Positions 2,540 through 63,821 of a DNA stretch of 64,000 nucleotides are shown piece by piece (the stretch's first letter is position 1; each line of letters starts with the position of its first letter). The notes below the pieces were generated by a model that was given only the letters and a program-made list of their open reading frames with translations, did no database searches and had not been told where the DNA came from. Where the stretch lies: the sequence record PV245935.1; one strand, 5' to 3'. This DNA comes from Escherichia phage kaset. The translations under genes and the position numbers were made by a program.

Positions 2540-2835
2540 GATTGCCGCAGGATTTTACGCGTATAATGACGTATCATCCGTATCAAGTAAGTAGTTGTTT
2601 TCAAAAGAATCTTACGGATGATACGGATGATACGCGTTGCCGCGATACTTTATAGGAATTCAAATAAATTAATTTAAAATTATATATCTAATTTAATTTT
2701 ATTTTTTTATAAACTCTTATATATGAAAAGTATCCGTATCATCCGTATCATCCGTAGCACACCAGTGATAGCGCGGCTTATACACCGATACGGATAAAAA
2801 TACGCCTCATTTTATCCGTATCATCCGTATCACAC
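2540..2835. repeat. Iteron-like module A: 9-mer ATCCGTATC arrays in direct and inverted orientation around an AT-rich core
   Basis: Direct copies at 2576-2584, 2732-2756, 2814-2831; inverted TACGGATGA x2 at 2613-2630; AT-rich 2646-2730; homologous to 54601-54890. Confidence 0.7.
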
Positions 2836-2889
2836 TAATTAAGGCGCGGCTATATCGGTTGTTATACATATTCAAACCATAATTATTGT

Positions 2890-2918
2890 TTGCCTAAGTT
2901 TTTTTCATTAGATATAAT
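2890..2918 (+). promoter_or_regulatory. Sigma70-like promoter candidate upstream of the scaffold/capsid genes
   Basis: -35 TTGCCT (2890-2895), 17 bp spacer, -10 TATAAT (2913-2918); ATG at 2942. Confidence 0.4.
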
Positions 2919-2941
2919 ACACAATACTTATTTGAGGGTGG

Positions 2942-4363
2942 ATGCGAATGCAAACGGCACGCGAAATTGACAAAAATGGATTCTTGACGATTGTGGGTTG
3001 TCCCATTTCGTCATTTGGCATTTTTGATTATTCTGCAGGTCAGGTTGGACTTGATGGTGATCCGAATCGCATCGTAAAAGTTTATCGCCCAGAGTCAGCG
3101 GTGAAAGACCCCGAAGCGATAGATTCATTCAAAAATATCCCTTTCATCGACAATCACGAAATGCTTTCTGGATTCGAAGGTGATGAGGATAACACGGCAC
3201 CCGAAGAGTATGGCGTTGATGGAGTTCTAACTGGCAATGTTTATTATGACAAGCCATGGATGCGCGGCGACCTTAAAGTTTTTAGCCGTCGTCTGAAGAA
3301 AGCCATCGATTCTGGAAAGGTTGACTTGTCTTTGGGCTATGACTGTGAATTCATCATACAGTCTGGAGAGTTTGACGGGCAGCCGTATGAAGTGGTACAG
3401 ACAACTCTTCGCGGCAACCACATTGCTCTCGTGGACGTTGGTCGAGTACCAGGTGCACGGGTGCTGGATGGTCGTTGCTTTGACCATCTTTGTTTGACGA
3501 CTGTAACACCATCCAACGAGGATTTAGATATGCCAAAACCGTTAAAAGGTAAAGCGCGTGATAATGCTGTTGAACAGCTGAAATCACTGATCCCTGCGCT
3601 CGAACAATTTCTGAATGAAGAGAGCACCGAAGCTGCTCATCAGGATGAAGTTGAAGTGAAAGCAGAAGAGAAGGATTCAACCGAAGAACGTGAAGAAGTG
3701 ATGGTTGATCCAGAAGTCAAAGCAGAAGCTGAAGAGACTCCAGAAGGTGAAGAGAAGTTTGAAGTTGAAACTGAATCTCACGCTGGTGGCGAGCTTCCGC
3801 AACTGATCAGCCAAATCGAAGCACTTATTGCAAAACTGAAAGGTGGCGCGGTAGGTGATGAAGAAGAAGTTGAAGCCGAAGTCAAAGACGAAGAAGAAGT
3901 TGAAGTCAAGGCTGAAGATGTATCACCTTGCGACAAAGCTGAAGATGTGGTTAGCGGCCTGCAAAACAGCAACGTAAAGGGGGCTTCGGTCGAAAAAGAT
4001 GACAAACCGACAAAAGCGGCGAAAGCGTCGCCAGGTCCAGCAAAAGGGGAACACTCAATGGCATCTGATTCAGCAGTTGCTGCTTTCTACGCTGATTCTG
4101 CTCGTAAGAATAGCCTCTACCAGCGCCTGTCTAAAGTTGTTGGTGCCTTTGATCATGCAACTATGGACTCCAAGTCCGTAGCGAAATATGGCGCTAAAAA
4201 GTTAGGCTTGAAGTGCGTTGATGGCGCTGAGTTTGACGTTGTGGATAACTATCTGCGCGGCGTTGAACACGGTCAAAAACAGCGTGTAGTCGCAAAACAA
4301 AAGGCCGCTGCGGATTCTGCAGCAACTGACGAAGCATTTGAAGCTTGGTTGAAAGGGGAATAA
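2942..4363 (+). CDS. Putative scaffolding / prohead assembly protein with acidic repeat region
   Basis: Lies immediately upstream of the capsid candidate; long E/V/K-rich acidic repeats (EEVEAEVKDEEEVEVKAED); RBS GAGGG. Confidence 0.55.
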   Translation: MRMQTAREIDKNGFLTIVGCPISSFGIFDYSAGQVGLDGDPNRIVKVYRPESAVKDPEAIDSFKNIPFIDNHEMLSGFEGDEDNTAPEEYGVDGVLTGNVYYDKPWMRGDLKVFSRRLKKAIDSGKVDLSLGYDCEFIIQSGEFDGQPYEVVQTTLRGNHIALVDVGRVPGARVLDGRCFDHLCLTTVTPSNEDLDMPKPLKGKARDNAVEQLKSLIPALEQFLNEESTEAAHQDEVEVKAEEKDSTEEREEVMVDPEVKAEAEETPEGEEKFEVETESHAGGELPQLISQIEALIAKLKGGAVGDEEEVEAEVKDEEEVEVKAEDVSPCDKAEDVVSGLQNSNVKGASVEKDDKPTKAAKASPGPAKGEHSMASDSAVAAFYADSARKNSLYQRLSKVVGAFDHATMDSKSVAKYGAKKLGLKCVDGAEFDVVDNYLRGVEHGQKQRVVAKQKAAADSAATDEAFEAWLKGE

Positions 4364-23855: not shown

Positions 23856-24500
23856 ATGATTAATGCAAACGTAATATCTAAAGGGACCGGATGCAGCATG
23901 GATGTTGCAGAGAAATGGGTGGACCCTTTCAAGCAGGCTTGTGAGCACTACGGAATCAAAAGCAAGAATGCCATCGCGGCATTCCTTGCAAACGTAGGAG
24001 TAGAGACGGGCAGCTTGAAAACCTTTGTGGAAAATCTCAACTACTCTGCTCAAGGTCTTGCCAATACATGGCCTAGTCGTTACAGCGTCAACGGTCGTTT
24101 CGGCGGCGCACCCAACTCCTTGGCATTGTCGATTGCCCGTAAACCAATGGAAATCGCCAATAATACATACGCAAACCGCATGGGCAACGGTTCAGTATCA
24201 TCTGGCGACGGTTGGAAGTACCGTGGCCGTGGTGCCATTCAGCTAACCGGAAAGGCTAACTATGCTGAATATACGCGTCAATCAGGCTATGATGCATTGA
24301 ACAATCCTGATATTCTGACTGAACCAAAATACATTGCTGACAGCGCGGCGTGGTTCTTCAAGAACAGCGGTTGCATTCCACTTGCTGATGCAGGCGCATT
24401 TGATTCGACTGTGAAGAGGATTAACGGGGCCGCGCCGAATACGGCTAACCATGGGGATTTGCGACGGAAGCGTTACAAGGATGCACTAGCAGTTATGTAA
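23856..24500 (+). CDS. Endolysin, glycoside hydrolase family 19 (chitinase-like) type
   Basis: Motifs AAFLANVGVETGSLKTFVENLNYSA and KYRGRGAIQLTGKANY typical of GH19 endolysins; RBS AAGGTGA. Confidence 0.75.
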   Translation: MINANVISKGTGCSMDVAEKWVDPFKQACEHYGIKSKNAIAAFLANVGVETGSLKTFVENLNYSAQGLANTWPSRYSVNGRFGGAPNSLALSIARKPMEIANNTYANRMGNGSVSSGDGWKYRGRGAIQLTGKANYAEYTRQSGYDALNNPDILTEPKYIADSAAWFFKNSGCIPLADAGAFDSTVKRINGAAPNTANHGDLRRKRYKDALAVM

Positions 24501-24501
24501 G

Positions 24502-24532
24502 AAAAAGGCCCATATGGGCCTTTGTTTATTTT
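24502..24532. terminator. Bidirectional rho-independent terminator between convergent genes
   Basis: Palindrome AAAGGCCCATATGGGCCTTT with T-runs on both strands. Confidence 0.6.
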
Positions 24533-24738
24533 ACGGCTTCAACTTGGACGGGCGGAGCGGAACTTGTATCAATGTCTGGCAAGTCGAAGTAATACCCCGC
24601 CATACCAATCACACCTACAATCGCGGCCCGTGCCACCTTGTTGCTAATTGACTCCCCAATAAGCTTTACCAACAGGGATAAGATTTGAGACGTCAAAGCC
24701 TTTTTCAGCCTTTTGTTTTCTTCCAAATCTTTCTGCAT
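24526..24738 (-). CDS. Small membrane protein (possible holin-like), hypothetical
   Basis: ATG at 24738 with GGTGG RBS; single hydrophobic segment AAIVGVIGMAGYYF; function unverified. Confidence 0.4.
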   Translation of the reverse strand: MQKDLEENKRLKKALTSQILSLLVKLIGESISNKVARAAIVGVIGMAGYYFDLPDIDTSSAPPVQVEAVK

Positions 24739-24752
24739 AACTACCACCCATG

Positions 24753-25295
24753 TCAACGCACTTCCTGTGTCTTAACATTACCTGAAGCATCTCTCAAGGG
24801 CAGTGGATAGTAGGCCATTTGGTAGTCTGATACGCCTTCAATGTGATAAAACACGATTACGTCTTTGCTGTTGATGAGCATGTTAACGACATCTGATTTA
24901 TCTTCTGGAGTGAGTATTAGTGCGCCGCCTGTCCTGCTGTCTACTGCAACAGGGTATGTCTTGTCGACAAGGCCGCTGTCCAATGTATTATACCTGACAA
25001 CGATTTCAGGGGCATCAACTTTTGCCATCGACATTCCGAACACAAACGACACGACCTGCCGACCGCGATCATTCATTACGCACATCTTTTCTTTGTCAAA
25101 TCTTTCTTTTATTACGTCGTATTTATTCCAGCAAAACTCAAATGACTGCCCATTGTTGAAATATCTTGTCAAAACTTTTGCACTTCCATTCGGCGGCGTA
25201 AACATATTTTCAGCCGATGCAGTCTTGGTGAAGAATATAACTGTCAGCATAGCCATGATGATGATCAAAACAATCTTTAATTTGTTCGCTTTCAT
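24753..25295 (-). CDS. Secreted/periplasmic protein with signal peptide, hypothetical
   Basis: N-terminus MKANKLKIVLIIIMAMLTVIFFTKTASA resembles a Sec signal peptide; RBS AAAGGTGA. Confidence 0.55.
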   Translation of the reverse strand: MKANKLKIVLIIIMAMLTVIFFTKTASAENMFTPPNGSAKVLTRYFNNGQSFEFCWNKYDVIKERFDKEKMCVMNDRGRQVVSFVFGMSMAKVDAPEIVVRYNTLDSGLVDKTYPVAVDSRTGGALILTPEDKSDVVNMLINSKDVIVFYHIEGVSDYQMAYYPLPLRDASGNVKTQEVR

Positions 25296-25365: not shown

Positions 25366-25396
25366 TAAATAAAAGAAAAGCCGGAAATTTCCGGCT
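25366..25396 (-). terminator. Rho-independent terminator on - strand
   Basis: Palindrome GCCGGAAATTTCCGGC followed by T-run on - strand. Confidence 0.55.
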
Positions 25397-25470
25397 TTAT
25401 GTATACACTGTATATTAAATTCTAGAAAACGGCGCGATAGATTATACGCACCAATTATTTATCCAGTGTG

Positions 25471-26445
25471 TTAAAAATACTCCATATCGGTAATATCACG
25501 GAAGCATTTATACAAGGCAGAGCGCGGCACGTCAACGATGCCAAAGTTGAAGAATTTATATGTCAGATACTTGTTGCGATAATTCTCGCGATTCTCCCAA
25601 AGCATTTTTCTCTCTGCCATAGGCATTGAACCAGCGGAGACGCGGAAAGGAATCATTTCACCTTTCTCATCAACATATTTTGGATTGACAACCACAAATG
25701 ATCCAAGGTATCCTTTTGCAACTAAGCCTTCAGCCTCTTTCGAACGCTTAGTGCGACCCAACTCATCAATGAATGCTTCGTTGTTGTTCTCCATCATCTC
25801 AACGAAGTCTATGATCAGTCCTTCTTCATCGGTCCACGGCTTGTCCTTCCACACATCACGTGACTTTGGCGTCGCGCGACCATGCTTGTATTTGCCCGTC
25901 CAAGACTTGCCATACAAGCCTTCATAGCCAAGTTGGTCTGCTTCGATTTGCATTGCCGCGTACTGTTCCATATTTTCGATGTTGCGATATTCGAGAGCGC
26001 GAAGGAATGGACGTCGGCCATGGTCAATGAGATATTGATTGACCTCAGCAACGCGTCGATTATACTGCTCATAACGTGCCGAGAAAGGCAAATCAGGTTC
26101 GCTAAAGTCATCAAACACCCACCATGTGAAGTTTGTTATAGCATCGGTATTCATGCAGGCGGTATAGGCTTGCTGCATTACGTTCTTATCATTCGGATTG
26201 CCGTCAATAAGCTCTCCATCAAGGCCGTGAATCAATTCACCCAAAAAGAGGAACTCTTTTTTAATCTGGACGTTTCGAAGCGCCATGCCGGACGTACCCA
26301 TTGGCAAGTTGTCATACGCCATCGCGCGTATGCCATCGACCTTGAAGGACAACCCGCAAGGCAGCGGCACATCTTCGCCACGCTCGATAATTTGTTTACG
26401 CTGGCAACCTTTCATTGGTTTTAATGCTTTGATTTCCCCTGCCAT
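25471..26445 (-). CDS. ATP-dependent ligase-like nucleotidyltransferase (DNA or RNA ligase)
   Basis: Motif I KVDGIRA (KxDGxR); EGLYGKS resembles motif IV. Confidence 0.55.
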   Translation of the reverse strand: MAGEIKALKPMKGCQRKQIIERGEDVPLPCGLSFKVDGIRAMAYDNLPMGTSGMALRNVQIKKEFLFLGELIHGLDGELIDGNPNDKNVMQQAYTACMNTDAITNFTWWVFDDFSEPDLPFSARYEQYNRRVAEVNQYLIDHGRRPFLRALEYRNIENMEQYAAMQIEADQLGYEGLYGKSWTGKYKHGRATPKSRDVWKDKPWTDEEGLIIDFVEMMENNNEAFIDELGRTKRSKEAEGLVAKGYLGSFVVVNPKYVDEKGEMIPFRVSAGSMPMAERKMLWENRENYRNKYLTYKFFNFGIVDVPRSALYKCFRDITDMEYF

Positions 26446-27038
26446 TACTCGCGACCCTCATTCATTACTTGTTCCATTGCGTAGGCATAAGCCTGATCAG
26501 TCGATTTGATAAACGTGCCGTTGTACATCACCCCTTTACGGTCCTTGATGTCTTCATAGGCGGCTTGAGCGCAATCAGACAGTCGAAGTCCATAATCATG
26601 CGCTACGCCGGAAAGATAATCGACTGCGGCCATGATAGTGACATCAATATCCATGCTTTGATTTTTAGCAATGGCGTCACCAAGCCGTCCGAGAGTCTTC
26701 GCCAAGCGAAGGATAAAGGAATGAGGGTGAGCGCCTTTGTCAGCGCAACCGCCGCCGATGATGTCTTCGATTTTTGCACCATTTTGCGCGGCAAGAATAG
26801 TTAACACAACAAGGCAATCACCGATGTCGTCCTTGATTGCGGCTTGCAAATCACAAATGGCCTGCTCTGTATATCCGATTTCAGGGTCAAAGAACACAAG
26901 GTCATGGAGTTGATCCACGTGGTCGGTCAACTCCCCAAACTCGCTAATAAGCTTCGGGTATTGGTCTTTAAGGTCGCAACCTTTGATGATGTTACGGTCA
27001 GAAGCCCATTGGCGAATGTTTGCATAAATCTGGTTCAT
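26445..27038 (-). CDS. MazG-like nucleotide pyrophosphohydrolase candidate
   Basis: EFGEL and IGDCLVVL segments resemble MazG EExGE / GDxL helices. Confidence 0.45.
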   Translation of the reverse strand: MNQIYANIRQWASDRNIIKGCDLKDQYPKLISEFGELTDHVDQLHDLVFFDPEIGYTEQAICDLQAAIKDDIGDCLVVLTILAAQNGAKIEDIIGGGCADKGAHPHSFILRLAKTLGRLGDAIAKNQSMDIDVTIMAAVDYLSGVAHDYGLRLSDCAQAAYEDIKDRKGVMYNGTFIKSTDQAYAYAMEQVMNEGRE

Positions 27039-27553
27039 TTATTTTCCTTTGATGCGTTGAATTGGTCGATTTTAATTTTAGCCTGATTATAAGTATCAAT
27101 CAAGCTATTAACTTTCTCTTTTAATCGGTTCGTTTCTGCGGCGAACTGAACAAGAAATCGGACATCCTCTTCTGATAGTCCACAGTTTCCTTCTGGGATA
27201 GAGAGGCGTCCAGTGGTCGCAGAGTAGGGCACACTCCTGAGTAATTCACGGGAACAGCTGAGTTGCTCGCGCAGCTTGATATTCCCAGACTTGTAACGAG
27301 CAATAGTGTCATCAGCAACCAGTTGCGCTTCCTGGCGACCCTTCTCATATGCCGATGCCGATTCAACCTGTAAAGATGCAATTTGCTCTTCGAGTGCATT
27401 TATCTTGTCCTTACGCTCATTAAGCGATGTCAGATATTGATTGTCCTTGGCCAGTGATGCGTTGGTTTGCTGAAGGTCTTCAACGTATGATCCAGCGGCG
27501 AACGCGCCAACAAGGGCCAGAATCTTCAGTAGCGGTACAATTCTTTCTATCAT
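27035..27553 (-). CDS. Rz-like inner-membrane spanin (i-spanin)
   Basis: N-terminal TM segment LLKILALVGAFAAG followed by long coiled-coil-type sequence; embedded lipoprotein ORF in +1 frame. Confidence 0.6.
   Translation of the reverse strand: MIERIVPLLKILALVGAFAAGSYVEDLQQTNASLAKDNQYLTSLNERKDKINALEEQIASLQVESASAYEKGRQEAQLVADDTIARYKSGNIKLREQLSCSRELLRSVPYSATTGRLSIPEGNCGLSEEDVRFLVQFAAETNRLKEKVNSLIDTYNQAKIKIDQFNASKENK
27121..27399 (-). CDS. Rz1-like outer-membrane lipoprotein spanin (o-spanin), embedded in Rz-like gene
   Basis: Signal-peptide-like region with lipobox-like ISSC (LLLVTSLGISSC); out of frame within 27035..27553; AAGGA RBS before 27399; alternative internal starts at 27348 or 27312. 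Confidence 0.5.
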   Translation of the reverse strand: MHSKSKLHLYRLNRHRHMRRVARKRNWLLMTLLLVTSLGISSCASNSAVPVNYSGVCPTLRPLDASLSQKETVDYQKRMSDFLFSSPQKRTD

Positions 27554-27610
27554 GATGCACCAGATAAATAAAAGGCCGCCAATCGGCAGCCTTGTTGATT
27601 TGATTGTCGA

Positions 27611-28471
27611 TTAAAACTCTTCTGCGTCGGTCGGAGTTTCATTGACAGGACCAGCGGCACCACTTGCTTCTTCCTGCTTGCTGCGGTCAATGTTAACGTT
27701 GCCGCCAACTACGTCGTTGTGGAACGCTTTGGCGACTTCGTACAGGCCTTTGTCCTGCACCAGACCTTCCAGCTCAAACTTCAGGACGGACCAGGTGTTG
27801 CCGTCTTTGGACTGAGACGCAGTACCCATGCGAACGATGTTCATGAAGGTCGGCGGCATTTTCAGGCCCTGCGGAGTCTGAACTTTCTTCTGCTGCAGCG
27901 CGGTCATCAGCATGCGAGACGGCTTGATCATGGAAGAAGTCAGAGACAGCATTGCGCTACCAAATTCACCAGTTTCTTCGTTCAACAGGATCACAAAGTG
28001 GTTACGTGTATCTGCGTAGTAAGGTGATTTCTTCTCGTGCACCTTGCCGTTTTCGTCTGGAACAAACACCTTACCGTTGATCTCAACAGCGCGGCCTGCC
28101 GCGACTTCTGCATCAACGTGCTCTTTGGTAAATTCACCTTTAAAGCCTTTATCGTCGGACTCGCGACCGCCCCAAAGGATGAAGGTGCGTTTGAATGCAC
28201 AAGGGATGATCTGCACGCCTTTCTTGCCGTCATACAATTCACCAGTAACGGTATTGTACAACATACCAGCTTTTGCGCCAGGAACGTGTTTTGGATCATC
28301 TTCGTCGACCATCGGAGACATCTTTTGCAGTACGACGATAAAAGGAATGGCATAAGCGTCGGCATCGGCACCTTCAAAACCAGCGCCAAAATCGGTCATA
28401 TCGACAAAATCAGCCATAGCGGACATCTGGGTGTTTTTCACTGCAACTTCGGTAGTTTCTTTCTTAGACAT
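27611..28471 (-). CDS. Putative ssDNA-binding protein (T7 gp2.5-like by C-terminal acidic tail)
   Basis: Acidic C-terminus ending ...TDAEEF; location within replication module; similarity judged by eye. Confidence 0.4.
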   Translation of the reverse strand: MSKKETTEVAVKNTQMSAMADFVDMTDFGAGFEGADADAYAIPFIVVLQKMSPMVDEDDPKHVPGAKAGMLYNTVTGELYDGKKGVQIIPCAFKRTFILWGGRESDDKGFKGEFTKEHVDAEVAAGRAVEINGKVFVPDENGKVHEKKSPYYADTRNHFVILLNEETGEFGSAMLSLTSSMIKPSRMLMTALQQKKVQTPQGLKMPPTFMNIVRMGTASQSKDGNTWSVLKFELEGLVQDKGLYEVAKAFHNDVVGGNVNIDRSKQEEASGAAGPVNETPTDAEEF

Positions 28472-28530
28472 TTGATGTTTTCCTATAGTATCAAGTTTCG
28501 TGGCAACCTGATTTCAAGATAAAGGTTAAA

Positions 28531-29088
28531 TTACTTTTTGCTTTTAGGCAAGGTTATTTTAGCTTCTTTATACTCAAAGACGCTAATATCTTCACTGACT
28601 GGATTACCCGCTTCCAGCTGTTCTTTTACGAATGACTTCAGTGTAGCAGAATGAACGCCTTGTTTCAACGTGGCTTCAATACCGTCTTCACGCAGCGCGG
28701 CAACAATCTCTTGCGCTTGCTCGATTTCTTCGCGACCGAACTCAGCCGTGACGCTGGACTTGATCAAGCCGCCGTAACCGTTGTTGACAAGCCAATCGAA
28801 TACTTTCAATTCATTTTCTTTCTTAATTGAAGCATTGACTTTTGACTCGACCTTGATTTTGGTCTTGTCTTCAAGCTTGATTTCGGACACGCCAAGCTCA
28901 TCCATAACGCCAGGAAGCAGAACAGTTTTGATTTCACTGATGCGCTGCTTTTGCATATCAGCTTCATCTTCAAGCTCTGTCAAAGCTTCTTGGCGTTCTG
29001 CCAATTCCGATACTAAGCGCGCAAGGCGCTCTTGGATGCTCTCAGGAGCGACCTGCGGCAAATCATCTTCCCAATTAATATTGCTCAT
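28531..29088 (-). CDS. Hypothetical protein
   Basis: ATG with RBS AAGAAGGT; start codon lies in first copy of a 52-bp tandem repeat. Confidence 0.5.
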   Translation of the reverse strand: MSNINWEDDLPQVAPESIQERLARLVSELAERQEALTELEDEADMQKQRISEIKTVLLPGVMDELGVSEIKLEDKTKIKVESKVNASIKKENELKVFDWLVNNGYGGLIKSSVTAEFGREEIEQAQEIVAALREDGIEATLKQGVHSATLKSFVKEQLEAGNPVSEDISVFEYKEAKITLPKSKK

Positions 29089-31417: not shown

Positions 31418-34301
31418 CTGGATACACCTGTTTGATAACGTCGACGATGAACATGTCAATGCCTTCAAGTTTGCGACCTTTCATCAGGAAGAATGCACCG
31501 TTCCCGACGTTCTCTGCAATGTACTTCCCGTACTTCTGGAACTTCTCTGGGCGAATCCTGAAACGCATTGGCGAATCGGTCGAATCGTCTTTGCACATAA
31601 GGTCGATGAACTGAGTTTCAAGCTTGTTTCCATACTGGTCAAACTCTGCGTAGCGGCCATCGGCCTGAAGACCCTTTTTAAGTTTGCCGTGCTTTGTATA
31701 AATGCCGCGCTCAAGACGTTTACGGATTCGTGTTGCTTCGTTCTCGTCTGCCAGCACTTTCTTGGTCAACTTGCCGATTACTATTGCACGCTCATCATCG
31801 CCTACTTCCTTCATCTGGCGTATTGAAGCACCGGAAGTAACGCCAATCAGATAGGGGTCATTATACGCCCAGCCGAACTTGGTGTGCATCTCTGTAAGGT
31901 CGCCGTATTTGACTTCAGCATTGGCCAATGCATCCTTTTGCTTTTGCGTTAAGGTTCCGGCTTCACGTGCTTCGATATACTTCATCGCCTTCACCATTCC
32001 GTACCCTTTAGCGTTCATGATGCCGCCGATTAGCTTTCCGTTAGCGATGGTCCAGTTCATTGAAGAGTGATCAGGGTCGATTGGCACATAATCCACGCCT
32101 TCCTTCGCAAGTTCACGTAATATCGCAATCGTCTGGTCTTCGTCCTTAGCAGCGCGTAAGCAGGCAGCGGCAAATTCCAACGGGTAGTGTCGTTTAAGCC
32201 ACAAGGTCCAGTAGGTCACGACCGCGTATGATACGGAGTGTGACTTGTTAAAGCCCCATGACCCGAACGTCGCCATCGCTTGCCAAAGCTTTCTTGCATC
32301 CGCTTCCGGTACGCCGTTATTTATTGCGCCTGCAACGAAGTCTTCGCCAAGCTTGTTAAAGTATTCCTCACCCTTACGGCCTGACATCGCCTTACGTACA
32401 GCGGATGTCTTCGCCCAGTCAAATGAACCAATCTCTTTCACCACGGCCATGATTTGCTCTTGGTAAAGAAACACGCCGTAAGTCTCTTTTAAGTACGGCT
32501 CAAGCTGCGGCACGTCGTACTCAATCGGCGCACGTCCTGCCGCGCGTTCAATGTATTTCTGGGCCATACCGGATGACAACGGGCCAGGTCGACCAAGTGC
32601 TGTCAGGTTATCGATTTTGTTAAAGTTATCAACGTGCACAAAGTTGGTTACTGAGCGTACAGCATCGCCTTCGAACTGGAAGATGCCTGACATCTTATTT
32701 TCGTTAAGGATGTCAAGGACGCTTTGATCATTGAGCTTGATTCCGTACAGCGTTTCAGCATCTATCACGCCAGTATCGGAAATTATTCCGAGTGTGCGGA
32801 GGCCCAGCGCATCAAGCTTCAAAAGGTTAAGGTATTCGCTGTCAGGCTTATCAATTTGCGCAATCCCTTCCGCCGTTACCGTACAGTAATCAGAGATTGG
32901 ATCATTACACACGATGATTCCCGCTGCGTGAACGCCAGTGTGGGAAGGGTGAATCTCAAGGTCACCCATGCATCGCGCGGCGTCAGGATATTTCGCCACG
33001 AACTCTTGGCCCGTGGTCGTGGTTGCAAAGGTATCCTCCAGGCCGTGACCATAACGGGCGTCACCGGATGAGTATTCAAGCAATGCGTTTTTAATGTTGG
33101 CCGTTTCGTGATAGCCGATGTTGAACTTCTTACCAACCTGAGCCATTACTGAGTTGGCCTTAAGCGTGTTGATGTTGCCAAGTTTTGCAACGTTCATTTC
33201 GCCGTATTTTTCTTTAAGGTAATCAAACACCATATAGCGTTTGGTATCCTCAAAGTCAATATCAATATCAGGAAGGTCGGCGCGGCTTACGTCGATGAAT
33301 CGGGCAAACAACAGCTTATACGGGATTGGGTCAACTTCCGTGATGCCGAGACAATAGCAAACCAGTGAACCAGCCGATGAGCCGCGAGCGGGTCCGACGA
33401 GCATTTTTGTCTTTGCGAATCGTACAAGGTCTGCTACCACCAGAAAGTATGAGTCGAAATCTTTCAGCTGAATCTGGTGAATCTCTTCGTTGAATCGGTC
33501 CTCATATTCCTGAGTCCATTCTTTGATGTGGCCTGCCTTGAGGCGGTACTCCATCCCCTCACGAGCAAGTTTAACCATGTCACCAGCAAGGTGAATAATC
33601 GGTGCCTTGCGCAACTTCAGGCCAAGCCCCACGATTCCGTTTGCGATATCAACAGCATTGGACGTTGCTTGATTCAACTCATCTTCGGTAAGGATTCCTT
33701 CAAGCTGTTTTCGCAAGTCTTCCGCGTCAACGATGCAATGCGGCTTAACTGTGTCGCGAACTTCCCACGCATAAGCAAAGTCGACGTGCTCAGGTGAAGG
33801 CATATGGTTGTATCCGGTTAAAACCAGCGGCCTTCCGTTGCTGCGGTGAGCCAATGCCTGGCGCTTAGCCAAAAGGAACGATGATGGGTTGACGTCTATA
33901 TAATCGTAGTCCTCTGGCAGCAGCAACTCCACGGCACCGCCACAGAATTTAACGACTCCATCGAGCGCCCCGAACTCTGCACGGGTCAGTCCGCCGCGCT
34001 GTGTTGCAAGTGTCGTAGCGTTGTAAAAAGATTTCAGGTCAAGGGCCAATATCCAAGCCTTCGGTTTGAATCCCTTTTTCGGGTCCGCATCAGGGTCAAT
34101 GATTGGAATCTCCATGCCGAACATAGGCTTGATATCATTCTTCTGACATTCCTTTTCCCAGCGAACGTGACCCCATGTATTGTTGTCAACTAATGCCGCG
34201 ACTTCGCAGCCCAACTCTTTGAGCCGTGCTATAATTTCAGGATGCCGTCCATATACTTCTTTGAACGTGTAACCGCTGCGAACTCTCAATTGTGGAAACA
34301 T
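31398..34301 (-). CDS. DNA polymerase III alpha-like (DnaE-type) replicative polymerase
   Basis: 967 aa; motif NKSHSVSYAVVTYWTLWLKRHYPLEFAAA characteristic of DnaE family. Confidence 0.8.
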   Translation of the reverse strand: MFPQLRVRSGYTFKEVYGRHPEIIARLKELGCEVAALVDNNTWGHVRWEKECQKNDIKPMFGMEIPIIDPDADPKKGFKPKAWILALDLKSFYNATTLATQRGGLTRAEFGALDGVVKFCGGAVELLLPEDYDYIDVNPSSFLLAKRQALAHRSNGRPLVLTGYNHMPSPEHVDFAYAWEVRDTVKPHCIVDAEDLRKQLEGILTEDELNQATSNAVDIANGIVGLGLKLRKAPIIHLAGDMVKLAREGMEYRLKAGHIKEWTQEYEDRFNEEIHQIQLKDFDSYFLVVADLVRFAKTKMLVGPARGSSAGSLVCYCLGITEVDPIPYKLLFARFIDVSRADLPDIDIDFEDTKRYMVFDYLKEKYGEMNVAKLGNINTLKANSVMAQVGKKFNIGYHETANIKNALLEYSSGDARYGHGLEDTFATTTTGQEFVAKYPDAARCMGDLEIHPSHTGVHAAGIIVCNDPISDYCTVTAEGIAQIDKPDSEYLNLLKLDALGLRTLGIISDTGVIDAETLYGIKLNDQSVLDILNENKMSGIFQFEGDAVRSVTNFVHVDNFNKIDNLTALGRPGPLSSGMAQKYIERAAGRAPIEYDVPQLEPYLKETYGVFLYQEQIMAVVKEIGSFDWAKTSAVRKAMSGRKGEEYFNKLGEDFVAGAINNGVPEADARKLWQAMATFGSWGFNKSHSVSYAVVTYWTLWLKRHYPLEFAAACLRAAKDEDQTIAILRELAKEGVDYVPIDPDHSSMNWTIANGKLIGGIMNAKGYGMVKAMKYIEAREAGTLTQKQKDALANAEVKYGDLTEMHTKFGWAYNDPYLIGVTSGASIRQMKEVGDDERAIVIGKLTKKVLADENEATRIRKRLERGIYTKHGKLKKGLQADGRYAEFDQYGNKLETQFIDLMCKDDSTDSPMRFRIRPEKFQKYGKYIAENVGNGAFFLMKGRKLEGIDMFIVDVIKQVYPDGNKQP

Positions 34302-34843
34302 TATTTACTCCATATGTCATATACGCCAATTTGTTGGCAGACTTTGTGCAGTAATATTACGTCGTCTAATGCACGGTGCTTCTGTTCATATTTTCCGAAA
34401 TATAATTCATACAACTCTTGAAGCTTAACTCTTCGGCCAAAAATAGGCAAGGTTTGCTCGACTGTACAAATGTTTATTTCTGGAAAATTAACATCACCAA
34501 GTGTAAGACCTTCGCGCTGTAATGCATAGTCAAGAATGTTTTTATCAAACGCATGGTTGTGCGCGATAGTTGCATCCGTCTTCTTGAATATTTCTTTTAG
34601 CTGCGGAACGAAATGAATAAATGGTGGATTGCACTCAAGGTCTTCGTTGGTTAATCCGGTAATCTTCGTGATGATTTCTTCAATCACAATTTCAGGATTA
34701 ATTATGAACTCGAACGTTTCAAGAATCTCTTTGCCGTCCGTCAACAGGCCTGCAAATTCAATAGGGCGCGGCTGCATTCCAAGCGGCGCTTTCGGGTGCA
34801 CGGTTAATCCGGTTGTTTCGAAGTCATAAGGGAGAAATAACAC
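34301..34843 (-). CDS. DnaQ-like 3'-5' exonuclease (proofreading)
   Basis: Exo motifs DFETTGL, HNHAFD, HRALDDV; immediately upstream of polymerase gene. Confidence 0.75.
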   Translation of the reverse strand: MLFLPYDFETTGLTVHPKAPLGMQPRPIEFAGLLTDGKEILETFEFIINPEIVIEEIITKITGLTNEDLECNPPFIHFVPQLKEIFKKTDATIAHNHAFDKNILDYALQREGLTLGDVNFPEINICTVEQTLPIFGRRVKLQELYELYFGKYEQKHRALDDVILLHKVCQQIGVYDIWSK

Positions 34844-35469: not shown

Positions 35470-35685
35470 TTATTGATTAATTACTGTGTTGTCTTCGTCC
35501 TGTTTCTTTTCAGGAGCGGGTGTGACAACTTCAAATTTAGGTTTGGGCAATTCACCTTTAGCACCTGGGACTTCAACGACAATCTTTTTGTCAGGCTCAA
35601 CAGGATTTGGAACTTCAAATTTGATCGTGTATCCTAATACAACAAGAAGCACTAAACCGATTACCGCTACCCAGGCTTTGTTCAT
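35470..35685 (-). CDS. Small membrane-anchored protein, hypothetical
   Basis: N-terminal TM segment AWVAVIGLVLLVVLG, Pro/Lys-rich tail. Confidence 0.5.
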   Translation of the reverse strand: MNKAWVAVIGLVLLVVLGYTIKFEVPNPVEPDKKIVVEVPGAKGELPKPKFEVVTPAPEKKQDEDNTVINQ

Positions 35686-44867: not shown

Positions 44868-46538
44868 ATGTCAATTGAACATGACAATCTTCCAGAGGAT
44901 ACAGGTGATGAATTTGGTGCAATCTTTGACGAAATTCAAGATGCTGGTGTTTCAGAAGAAATGCAAGCGGCAGAGCAGCAAGGCACCAGAGCTAAAATAA
45001 GCCTTCAGCACAAGGCTGTTGAGAAAGATGCAGAGCGCATGGAATGCTACGGTGAAGAAGACTTGGTTGAAAGAGCACGTTTGCTCGCCTCACTTCAGGT
45101 AATCAAGTTCCCTCACTACAAACCGACGAAAGATGATTTTGTTCTTCAGGCGGACCGGACGAGTGACATGAACCGTTATGCGGTTTTCGACGCGTTGTTT
45201 GATAAGGGAAGCGGCATCGTCCCATTCCCTCACAAAGATACTTTTCGTGGACGCTTAGTCGACCATCGCGGCGAAACATTCACCGACCGGACATTGGAAG
45301 TCACAGAGATAGTTGCCGCTGTCGACGCAGCAGGTCTGTCCAACCCAAACTCACGTCAGGTCGCTCAATCCTATAAGGAATGGGCCATGCGTTATCAGCG
45401 CGACGACCTGATGGACTTCTTCTACAAGAAGCTGCCTGAATGGGACGGTACTGCGCGCATTGAAAAATACCTTATCGAGCTATTCCGACCGTTCGATACA
45501 GAGTTAAACCGACAAATCGGTGTGTATTTTTGGCTATCGCTCTATAACCGCCTGACCAATCCTGGCTGTCAAGCGCCAATCTCCATTGCGCTCATCGGCG
45601 GCCAGAACGCAGGGAAGAGTTATTTTAGTAAGCTGCTTTGCGAAGCTATTATGAACGACCGCCACGCAACACCGATTCCGTTGAACTTGGCCGCGCAAAA
45701 CTTCAACCCGTTCTTGCGAGCTATTACGGGTCGCTCAATTATCGCGAACGTTGGCGAGATGACAGGCTTTAAAAAGGCTGACATCGAAAACATGAAAGCA
45801 TTCCTGACTAAGACGGAAGATGACCTGGACTTCAAATTTGAAGATACGCAGGTTAAACCACGCCAGTGGATTGCTATCATGGACGGCAACGAATACGCAG
45901 GCATGCAGCGTGACGATACGGGCAACCGTCGTGTGTATCCTATCTTTGTTGGCCAACTCGCCGACAAGGACGGGCAACCGAACTGGTCTAAAGACTTCCA
46001 AGCTGACCTTTCCACTTTGAAAGAAGACGTTTGGCAGCTGATGGCTGAGTGCGCTGCGTGGATGGAGAAGCACGGCGAAGCAGGTTACAACGCCTTTGTT
46101 GGTGAAACATCTCGTATGCTTACTGAGTTCAGTAAGAACGAAATGGAACGTGCGCGCGGCGTTATCCGTGATGAGATGGTCGACAACGACCTTGTTGAAG
46201 TCATCATCACCGCGCCTTATGACCGACATCACAGCGGACGCTGGCACATCACCAGTGGGGCAATCGCTATGGGATTCAGAGCTAAGTGCGGCAAGTCGCC
46301 TTTCTCACGTACCCTTGCGCCGCACATGTCGAAGCTTGGATTTGAGCCTGCAACCTATCGCAACCAGCGTGGCTACTTTACGCCGCTGATTAAGAATGAA
46401 GCAGGGGAATACATTTCTGACTTGATGACCATCTTAGCGTATCTTATTCGCGACGAGTCTGACCCTGAAGATATTGAATTCTTGAAGAAGGTTATTGAAC
46501 GCAAACGTTCTTTAGGAAGAGATAAGGATGAATTCTGA
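44868..46538 (+). CDS. P-loop NTPase, primase-associated (VirE/D5-like helicase candidate)
   Basis: Walker A IGGQNAGKS; 556 aa; downstream of PrimPol gene. Confidence 0.6.
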   Translation: MSIEHDNLPEDTGDEFGAIFDEIQDAGVSEEMQAAEQQGTRAKISLQHKAVEKDAERMECYGEEDLVERARLLASLQVIKFPHYKPTKDDFVLQADRTSDMNRYAVFDALFDKGSGIVPFPHKDTFRGRLVDHRGETFTDRTLEVTEIVAAVDAAGLSNPNSRQVAQSYKEWAMRYQRDDLMDFFYKKLPEWDGTARIEKYLIELFRPFDTELNRQIGVYFWLSLYNRLTNPGCQAPISIALIGGQNAGKSYFSKLLCEAIMNDRHATPIPLNLAAQNFNPFLRAITGRSIIANVGEMTGFKKADIENMKAFLTKTEDDLDFKFEDTQVKPRQWIAIMDGNEYAGMQRDDTGNRRVYPIFVGQLADKDGQPNWSKDFQADLSTLKEDVWQLMAECAAWMEKHGEAGYNAFVGETSRMLTEFSKNEMERARGVIRDEMVDNDLVEVIITAPYDRHHSGRWHITSGAIAMGFRAKCGKSPFSRTLAPHMSKLGFEPATYRNQRGYFTPLIKNEAGEYISDLMTILAYLIRDESDPEDIEFLKKVIERKRSLGRDKDEF

Positions 46539-62624: not shown

Positions 62625-62966
62625 TTAATTTCTTTTGAGAGGAATATGACGGTTACTGTCATTATTTGGTTTAATAATGAGCATAAAAACGATTAGAAAG
62701 ATGATGGCTGATATACTTAATTCAATCAGCGCGGCCTGAGATATGGATTGATCTTCATGATATTGCTTTTGCATTTCCGCTTTCTTCTGAGCGCAAACTT
62801 CAGGTGATATATAATCGCCTTTTGAGTTGCCATAATAAATCTCGCCATTCTCAGAAATAAGTCTGCCGCAAATATCCGTATCGGCCTTTGCGCTTGACAT
62901 CATAATAACGGTGCCGATGATAGCAGCGATTGTCCAGATTAGCAGTTGTGATAAAGTGTTGTTCAT
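62625..62966 (-). CDS. Membrane protein, hypothetical
   Basis: N-terminal and C-terminal hydrophobic segments (LLIWTIAAIIGTVIMM; AIIFLIVFMLII). Confidence 0.5.
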   Translation of the reverse strand: MNNTLSQLLIWTIAAIIGTVIMMSSAKADTDICGRLISENGEIYYGNSKGDYISPEVCAQKKAEMQKQYHEDQSISQAALIELSISAIIFLIVFMLIIKPNNDSNRHIPLKRN

Positions 62967-63425: not shown

Positions 63426-63606
63426 TTGTTTCTCTGTTTAGCAGATACCTGCCGCGCATTCCGTGAAGGCTGAACTCAGCCGTCGATGGATTAGATTTTG
63501 AAAGCCACATCGCTTGACCGTCAAAAGGTCCGCCGATGCATATGTATTTGGCCTTTGGCTCACTCCTTTTGGGTCGCTTTGCCCGCTCTTTGATTGATAG
63601 TCTCAT
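63385..63606 (-). CDS. Hypothetical small protein
   Basis: Track ORF. Confidence 0.4.
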   Translation of the reverse strand: MRLSIKERAKRPKRSEPKAKYICIGGPFDGQAMWLSKSNPSTAEFSLHGMRGRYLLNRETSGSTFVEWKENGK

Positions 63607-63821
63607 CAGTCTTCACCTTGAGATTCCAGACAAGTAAGAACAAGCCATGTCATCGGAAGAATCAAAACCAGAGAAATAAGTGACCAAATGGACCAACATA
63701 AGATGACAGACTTGAATGTGTGAACGTTGCCAAACACAGCAGTGAAACAAAATCCCATCACGAAAGCAAGCGCGGTGGAGTGGTTATCAATGGCTTTGAT
63801 GGCGCGGTCGATAAGTTTCAT
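63606..63821 (-). CDS. Small membrane protein, hypothetical
   Basis: Two hydrophobic segments; ATGA overlap with downstream gene. Confidence 0.45.
   Translation of the reverse strand: MKLIDRAIKAIDNHSTALAFVMGFCFTAVFGNVHTFKSVILCWSIWSLISLVLILPMTWLVLTCLESQGED

Follow-up and report, generated by a model that had tools for sequence, protein, structure and literature searches.

The 64,000-nt stretch of Escherichia phage kaset analysed here in its whole length (sequence record PV245935.1; hereafter the window) raises the question of what two genes, one lying inside the other and both resembling lysis genes, are doing among genes of DNA metabolism. On the minus strand, an open reading frame (ORF) of 172 amino acids (aa) at 27035..27553 contains, in another frame, an ORF of 92 aa at 27121..27399. 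Both are on the ORF list, as an earlier note made from the DNA letters had placed them. That note read the pair as Rz- and Rz1-like spanins, i.e., an inner-membrane partner (i-spanin) plus a lipoprotein partner in the outer membrane (o-spanin), and found their position odd. Spanins disrupt the bacterial outer membrane as a phage infection ends. We are confident that the pair forms a functional two-component spanin of the embedded type in a Wifcevirus. Region 26000..29000 of the window shows 96-97% DNA identity to the phages ECO71P1, vB_EcoM_WFH, ECML-117 and Mansfield, all of them Wifcevirus. This genus consists of PB1-like E. coli myophages, and the phage of the window is a member of it. According to an alignment with phage Bas100, the window represents nearly the whole genome of ~68 kb.

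The pair itself is already known and its novelty is nil. Phage ECML-117 was listed with an embedded two-component spanin in the census of the Young laboratory (Kongari et al. 2018, BMC Bioinformatics 19:326, Tables 3-4, S1), in which its i-spanin and o-spanin each constitute a singleton family. The coordinates in ECML-117 (45375..45894 and 45461..45689, both on the minus strand) were given there and the sequences printed. An i-spanin and an o-spanin are also annotated at the homologous positions in the GenBank records of Mansfield (CPT_Mansfield_057/058, Center for Phage Technology) and of Bas98-101 (Bas100_0037/0038), and the RefSeq label of the long gene is "Rz-like spanin".

An i-spanin, in the definition of the Young laboratory, is an inner-membrane protein whose only membrane segment is N-terminal and whose periplasmic domain is largely helical. 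Both features are found in the product of 27035..27553. The membrane segment is predicted at about residues 5-22 (IVPLLKILALVGAFAAGS; 27488..27541, minus strand) by the Kyte-Doolittle profile and a transmembrane scan, with the hydropathy peak at residues 5-19 (IVPLLKILALVGAFA; Kyte-Doolittle 2.33). The AlphaFold2 model, built on five divergent sequences, predicts two helices, at residues 5-106 and 128-170, joined by an unstructured linker or coil (107-127), with a mean predicted local distance difference test score (pLDDT) of 78. This succession of membrane segment, CC1 helix, linker and CC2 helix matches the layout described for lambda Rz, i.e., membrane anchor, helix, linker and helix (PMC6139136). 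The profile of PHROG 1327 ("Rz-like spanin") is matched over its full length (E=1e-26; residues 6-160 aligned to positions 9-156 of the 158-position profile). In Table S1 of Kongari et al. 2018, the i-spanin of ECML-117 is divided into 24 N-terminal residues and a periplasmic domain of 148. Only one residue differs between that protein and the one of the window, Y110 here versus D110. At this position (27224..27226, minus strand), tyrosine occurs in the window and in WFH, and aspartate in ECML-117 and in all four divergent relatives described below. In the o-spanin frame, this change is synonymous, as it affects the third base of the Pro58 codon.

Remote homologues of the i-spanin were found by tblastn in Yersinia phage PY54 (ORF63, E=1e-13) and Burkholderia phage Mica (gp32, E=1e-6), at 29-33% identity. 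Both lie directly after the holin and endolysin genes in classical lysis cassettes, and the Mica gene carries an annotated embedded o-spanin. Mica gp32 was assigned by its depositors to PF03245 (Phage_lysis), which provides a transitive link to this family.

The embedded ORF starts 154 nt inside the i-spanin gene and lies wholly within it, in the +1 frame, as annotated in Mansfield and Bas100. Relative to the length of the i-spanin gene, its start falls at 0.30 (M1) or 0.39 (M18) and its end at 0.83. The precursor (MHSKSKLHLYRLNRHRHMRRVARKRNWLLMTLLLVTSLGISS, followed by CASNS...) contains a basic n-region, a hydrophobic core (LLMTLLLVTSLG) and a sole lipobox, ISSC, which ends in Cys43. According to pattern rules, the mature o-spanin would start at this lipidated cysteine (codon 27271..27273) and comprise 50 aa (27124..27273, minus strand). 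The residue that follows the lipidated cysteine sets the sorting of a lipoprotein, with alanine rather than aspartate leading to the outer membrane (the "+2 rule"). As the +2 residue here is alanine and not aspartate (MRRVARKRNWLLMTLLLVTSLGISS, followed by CAS...), sorting of the o-spanin to the outer membrane is implied. A lipoprotein signal is also listed by Kongari et al. 2018 for the ECML-117 sequence, which is identical to the window over the signal stretch. The mature o-spanin differs from that of ECML-117 in one residue (A to V). A second cysteine of the o-spanin, in the motif GVCPTL, is invariant across five divergent sequences, and so are the periplasmic residues C100 and C124 of the i-spanin. 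At the sequence level, both partners carry the periplasmic cysteines expected for homotypic intermolecular disulfides, a pattern in agreement with the lambda complex and its three homotypic disulfides (PMC6139136). The embedded ORF also has a weak match to PHROG 4306, "Rz-like spanin" (E=5.8e-4).

Every computational feature of an embedded two-component spanin could be found in the pair, in agreement with its listing for ECML-117. The earlier note was therefore right in its identification, as well as in the features on which it had relied: an N-terminal transmembrane segment and long coiled-coil-type sequence in the long protein, and a positively charged N-region, hydrophobic core and ISSC lipobox in the embedded one.

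Its start of the o-spanin at 27399 is possible, with 27348 as an alternative. The first ATG (M1, 27399) is preceded by an AAGGA Shine-Dalgarno sequence 8 nt upstream. It is kept although the overlapping Rz residue varies between N, Y, H and D, all of which are encoded by xAT codons, with the next codon beginning with G. From the second (M18, 27348), the ORF yields a 75-aa precursor with a canonical 25-residue signal peptide (MRRVARKRNWLLMTLLLVTSLGISS; 27274..27348, minus strand), and the Shine-Dalgarno sequence before it is weak. This methionine is conserved in all relatives, so that both ATGs are conserved. The published sources disagree only on this point: M18 is taken for ECML-117 in Table S1 of Kongari et al. 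2018 (75-aa precursor, 25-aa signal, 50-aa mature protein), versus 92 aa in Mansfield and Bas100. The start may be either one, and the same mature lipoprotein would result from both.

The conservation of the embedded frame was followed in four metagenomic relatives, retrieved by a protein search with Rz and showing 52-65% Rz identity in a MAFFT alignment. Their gene order is the same, i.e., a gp33-like gene (DUF7307), a gp34-like gene, Rz, MazG, ligase, a ~180-aa protein, a 73-90-aa protein and a convergent endolysin, with the contig of relative L013 ending after the start of the ligase gene. The DNA of the relatives was translated to find the embedded o-spanin frame. In all four, the +1 frame is open and contains a lipobox (ISGC, ISSC or TSSC). 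The consensus of their mature o-spanins reads ...S-x-x-P-x-x-[YW]-x-GVCPTL-x-P-L-[DE]-[AS]-SLS-x-x-ET-x-DYQ-x-x-MS-x-[FI]LF.... The frame is also kept in six further Wifcevirus sequences (the lipobox of WFC is MSSC), which brings the open frame with lipobox to 11 sequences, including the four at 52-65% Rz identity.

The substitutions in Rz point in the same direction, as third-codon positions of Rz are second positions in the Rz1 frame. Pairwise identity at the Rz third positions is 0.40 before the overlap, rises to 0.75 under the mature Rz1 and falls to 0.52 after the overlap. Invariant third positions number 3 out of 49, 25 out of 51 and 5 out of 23 in these three sections, and the 25/51 under mature Rz1 compares with 8/72 outside the overlap (Fisher p=3.9e-6). 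This constraint is the signature expected of two overlapping genes that are both under selection, and it indicates that purifying selection acts on the embedded o-spanin frame. When the codons of Rz were shuffled 20,000 times, the frequency of an alternative-frame ORF that reached 92 aa or more and carried a lipoprotein-type signal was 5e-5. A six-frame scan of the 64-kb window gave one other lipoprotein-like pattern, the N-terminal GxGxxG of a flavoprotein-like ORF of 331 aa. Judged by these sequence patterns, it is very unlikely that the embedded arrangement is a product of chance.

Several observations weigh against a functional spanin. Homology of the i-spanin to lambda Rz is not detectable (hhalign probability 0.5%, E 0.12). 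Searched with Pfam PF03245, the i-spanin of the window gave no match at E<=1, and one of five relatives gave a match at E 0.002, below the family cut-off. No solved structure related to the i-spanin was found. For the o-spanin, the score against Pfam PF17531 (O_Spanin_T7) was 13.1 bits at a cut-off of 25 (E 0.094). The lipoprotein assignment was made by pattern rules, and the mature protein contains only 4 prolines in 50 residues versus 10 in 40 for lambda Rz1 (the lambda figure being quoted). Both genes are located behind a strong terminator, amid genes of DNA metabolism. Kongari et al. 2018 themselves referred to the ECML-117 pair as the "best possible candidates". A literature search retrieved no lysis-gene experiment for any Wifcevirus, and lysis genes are not discussed in the Mansfield genome announcement.

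This setting could suggest that the genes are real, with a function at the envelope other than lysis, e.g., that of an early or middle lipoprotein which, like T5 Llp, excludes superinfection or masks a receptor. Their orientation along with genes of replication and nucleotide metabolism, the endolysin lying 2.5 kb off on the other strand and the undetectable homology to lambda Rz would all fit such a role. However, other members of the PHROG family of the i-spanin are located in holin-endolysin-spanin cassettes, and the conserved cysteine pattern fits the model of disulfide-linked spanins. Moreover, the same genomic slot is occupied in other PB1-like phages by other spanin families (PHROG 312, E=1.6e-38; PHROG 11951, E=7e-21). 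No other lipoprotein or unimolecular spanin (u-spanin) candidate was found in the window, so the phage would otherwise be without a spanin. We consider a non-lysis function highly improbable. More improbable still is that only the 172-aa protein is made, with the embedded ORF left untranslated as a side effect of the Rz codon composition: such ORFs are rarely called, the O_Spanin_T7 match is insignificant and the Shine-Dalgarno sequence before M18 is weak, but this idea is countered by the open frame, intact lipobox and conserved mature sequence in the distant relatives, by the constraint on synonymous Rz positions precisely under the mature o-spanin, by the upstream ATG kept in spite of the varying Rz residue and by the rarity of such ORFs among the codon shuffles. 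That a database protein search with the embedded ORF matched only the Mansfield entry is itself explained by the rarity with which embedded genes are called.

A single-polypeptide spanin of the T1 gp11/PB1 type was also considered and rejected. A hydrophobic segment is lacking at the C-terminus of the embedded lipoprotein, and no homologue of the u-spanin of phage KPP12 is present in the window.

The embedded two-component spanin of the window can be compared with several known systems. It resembles lambda Rz/Rz1 in the embedded +1 architecture, in the outer-membrane lipoprotein partner, and in the i-spanin's two periplasmic cysteines and the one in the mature o-spanin. In contrast to the lambda pair, it shows no detectable sequence homology, its o-spanin is much less proline-rich, and it is not the last element of an S-R-Rz cassette, being located amid DNA-metabolism genes on the strand opposite the endolysin. 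The pairs of ECML-117, Mansfield and Bas100 are of the same genus, position, architecture and frame, with essentially no difference. PY54 ORF63 and Mica gp32/gp31 represent embedded pairs with a remotely homologous i-spanin, although both come right after the holin and endolysin genes of canonical cassettes. T4 pseT.3/pseT.2 is a known case of spanin genes that lie apart from endolysin and holin, as lysis genes are unclustered in T4-like genomes (Kongari et al. 2018). Unlike the pair of the window, the T4 spanin genes are separated and not embedded, and their sequences are unrelated. The sister group Pbunavirus (PB1) has a u-spanin with an AWAC lipobox, which shares the function and the distance to the endolysin (in KPP12, ORF6 at 2562..2960 and the endolysin at 33925..34587). 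It differs as a single polypeptide with a lipobox and a C-terminal membrane segment, at another genome position.

The mechanism can be proposed on the basis of the lambda model. The N-terminal segment of the 172-aa i-spanin would anchor it in the inner membrane, with its two helical domains reaching into the periplasm. Translation of the same mRNA in the +1 frame would give the o-spanin, which would be exported, receive its lipid at the lipobox cysteine and be sorted to the outer membrane. The two proteins would then bind each other by their C-terminal parts, and the resulting disulfide-linked complexes would pass through the peptidoglycan mesh and bridge the periplasm; in lambda, the spanin complex contains three homotypic disulfides (PMC6139136). 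Once a putative holin releases the cytoplasmic endolysin and the wall is degraded, the freed spanin complexes would collapse and fuse the inner and outer membranes, which would complete lysis.

The endolysin of the window (23856..24500, plus strand) is of the GH19 type (Pfam Glyco_hydro_19, E=1.4e-7; PHROG 181, E=2.6e-69) and closes the rightward structural operon. It lies 2,535 nt from the spanin pair on the other strand, in accordance with the ~2.5 kb given in the earlier note. A transmembrane scan revealed neither a signal nor a signal-anchor-release (SAR) segment in it, and because of this a holin is expected. The same note had considered the holin not securely identified. Indeed, no holin is annotated in the stretch of Mansfield examined or in the first 50 kb of Bas100, but a candidate is present beside the endolysin. 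The 70-aa product of 24526..24738 (minus strand; PHROG 5165) is encoded convergently with the endolysin and is conserved across PB1-like phages. It is homologous to PA1-LRP of Pantoea phage PA1 (phmmer E=4.5e-17 in a target set of two sequences), a protein that reportedly inhibits growth when expressed alone and enhances endolysin-mediated lysis (PMC11538084). It contains only one moderately hydrophobic stretch. By homology and position, it is tentatively the best holin lead in the window.

In two relatives with a Wifcevirus-type spanin, L010 (L010:9065-9520, minus strand) and L011, a PHROG 90 endolysin occupies the same convergent position. The endolysin has thus been exchanged in place, GH19 in the window versus PHROG 90 in L010 and L011.

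Other small proteins of the window with predicted membrane or export signals, all encoded on the minus strand, gave no family match. A 71-aa protein with two membrane segments is encoded at 63606..63821, another 71-aa protein, which has one membrane segment at the N-terminus and a proline-rich tail, at 35470..35685, and one of 113 aa with a signal peptide and a C-terminal anchor at 62625..62966; for these three, no PHROG match was obtained. The same holds for the 180-aa product of 24753..25295, which has a predicted signal peptide.

Regarding the neighbouring genes, the earlier note had set the pair between MazG-like and single-stranded DNA-binding (SSB)-like genes. The first of these stands: a MazG-like gene (26445..27038, minus strand) lies immediately downstream of Rz and overlaps its stop codon. 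The second does not, as the upstream ORF (27611..28471, minus strand) belongs to the Pam3_Gp34 family (Pfam PF23977; PHROG 2402). An AlphaFold2 model of this gp34-like protein (pLDDT 80; predicted template modelling score, pTM, 0.73) gave no significant Foldseek match in the PDB. The ATGA overlap between the i-spanin stop and the MazG start (27035..27038, minus strand) is conserved in all five divergent lineages, which suggests translational coupling of the two genes.

An intrinsic terminator with a 9-bp hairpin, followed by UUUUAUUUAU, is located between the gp34-like gene and the i-spanin start (27572..27593, minus strand). Its folding energy is -15.9 kcal/mol (z=-2.6), and it is annotated in Mansfield. 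In the four divergent relatives (L010-L013), the hairpin persists, its stem having changed in a compensatory way. From its U-tract to the i-spanin ATG there are ~10 nt, with only the GGTG ribosome-binding site inside (27558..27561, minus strand), a site that is conserved in L010-L012 and is also marked in Table S1 of Kongari et al. 2018. A second terminator follows the ligase gene at 25398..25377. The spanin pair is thus part of a leftward unit of conserved terminator, Rz/Rz1, MazG, ligase and terminator, outside the endolysin operon. Because only ~10 nt separate the U-tract from the ATG, this unit is probably transcribed by read-through of the terminator or from a promoter inside the upstream gene. 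Expression of spanins alongside DNA-metabolism genes would be tolerated, as they would be inert until the wall is degraded. In the lambda model, spanin complexes accumulate harmlessly until that moment (PMC6139136).

Further upstream, a gp33-like (DUF7307) gene is found at 28531..29088 (minus strand), with a counterpart in Pseudomonas phage datas at L007:7135-7755 (minus strand). Some annotations of Pbunavirus, of the JJ01 type and citing E215, label this gene "u-spanin". The label is wrong, as neither a lipobox nor a membrane segment is present, and it looks like a propagated misannotation.

The dispersal of lysis genes, correctly recognized in the earlier note, characterizes the whole PB1-like group. 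This does not extend to a shared spanin with the Pseudomonas PB1-like phages, a possibility that was rejected: a tblastn search with the spanin of the window gave no Pbunavirus match, and the syntenic gene encodes an unrelated membrane protein. In Pbunavirus, the slot between the gp34-like and MazG genes holds a 201-aa protein of PHROG 1544 whose N-terminus is rich in glycine and which also has a coiled coil and membrane segments at the C-terminus (L007:5488-6093, gp45 of Pseudomonas phage datas; L016:36661-37266, KPP12; both minus strand). Its match to Pfam GTA_holin_3TM is sub-threshold (E 0.018). The same protein occupies the slot in Serratia phages MyoSmar and Hera (Myosmarvirus), Pantoea phages Kyle and PA1 (Kylevirus) and Burkholderia phage BcepF1. 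It is mostly labelled hypothetical, although two GenBank records name it holin. The AWAC-lipobox u-spanin of Pbunavirus (Kongari et al. 2018) corresponds to KPP12 ORF6 (L016:2562-2960), and ORF8 of this phage is a holin candidate with multiple membrane segments. Both map to the interval from the terminase to the portal gene, with the endolysin ~30 kb away. The window was searched for homologues of these two proteins and of the Pbunavirus slot protein, and none turned up.

The slot was surveyed in 80 IMG/VR loci retrieved with a gp34-like alignment, a sample that is not exhaustive. The Wifcevirus-type pair was found in L019-L022 and the PHROG 1544 protein in L023, L026, L033, L034, L046, L051 and L068. 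Other occupants, in further uncultivated PB1-like genomes, were an embedded spanin pair whose i-spanin belongs to PHROG 312 (L024:4415-4948) and a separated pair whose lipoprotein belongs to PHROG 11951, "Rz-like spanin" (L028:4442-5369). An 85-aa holin-like protein, with two hydrophobic segments by scan, accompanies an embedded pair at L037:4784-5627. Overlapped spanin-like pairs at L029:4425-4947 and L038:4415-4958 were assigned provisionally, by architecture and weak profile matches. In several other loci, the slot is without a membrane protein. These occupants, which are not homologous, indicate that the gp34-like/MazG slot is a recurrent site for predicted envelope-disruption genes in the PB1-like supergroup. 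The location of the spanin pair that had seemed odd is such a recurrent site, in a group in which dispersed lysis genes are the norm and for which T4 offers a precedent. It is possible, though doubtful, that the slot is a conserved landing site for such genes throughout the PB1-like phages and that, judged by position alone, PHROG 1544 would be an unrecognized lysis protein of Pbunavirus, either a holin or another membrane disruptor.

For the window, the main value of these results lies in its correct annotation. The embedded o-spanin is missed by automatic gene callers, and in many Wifcevirus records one or both genes are labelled "hypothetical". Modest additions to what was known are an independent proof from evolution that the embedded frame codes, the o-spanin start flagged as uncertain, the holin candidate beside the endolysin, and the observation that, across PB1-like phages, the position of the spanin is conserved and its identity is not. 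Mildly new are also the operon headed by a conserved terminator and the recurrent "lysis slot", through which PHROG 1544 becomes a candidate for a lysis protein in Pbunavirus. If this were true, the conserved upstream terminator would set the dose of the PHROG 1544 protein by read-through in a therapeutically important genus. As biocontrol and phage therapy make use of Wifceviruses and Pbunaviruses, knowing all of their lysis genes is of some practical value.

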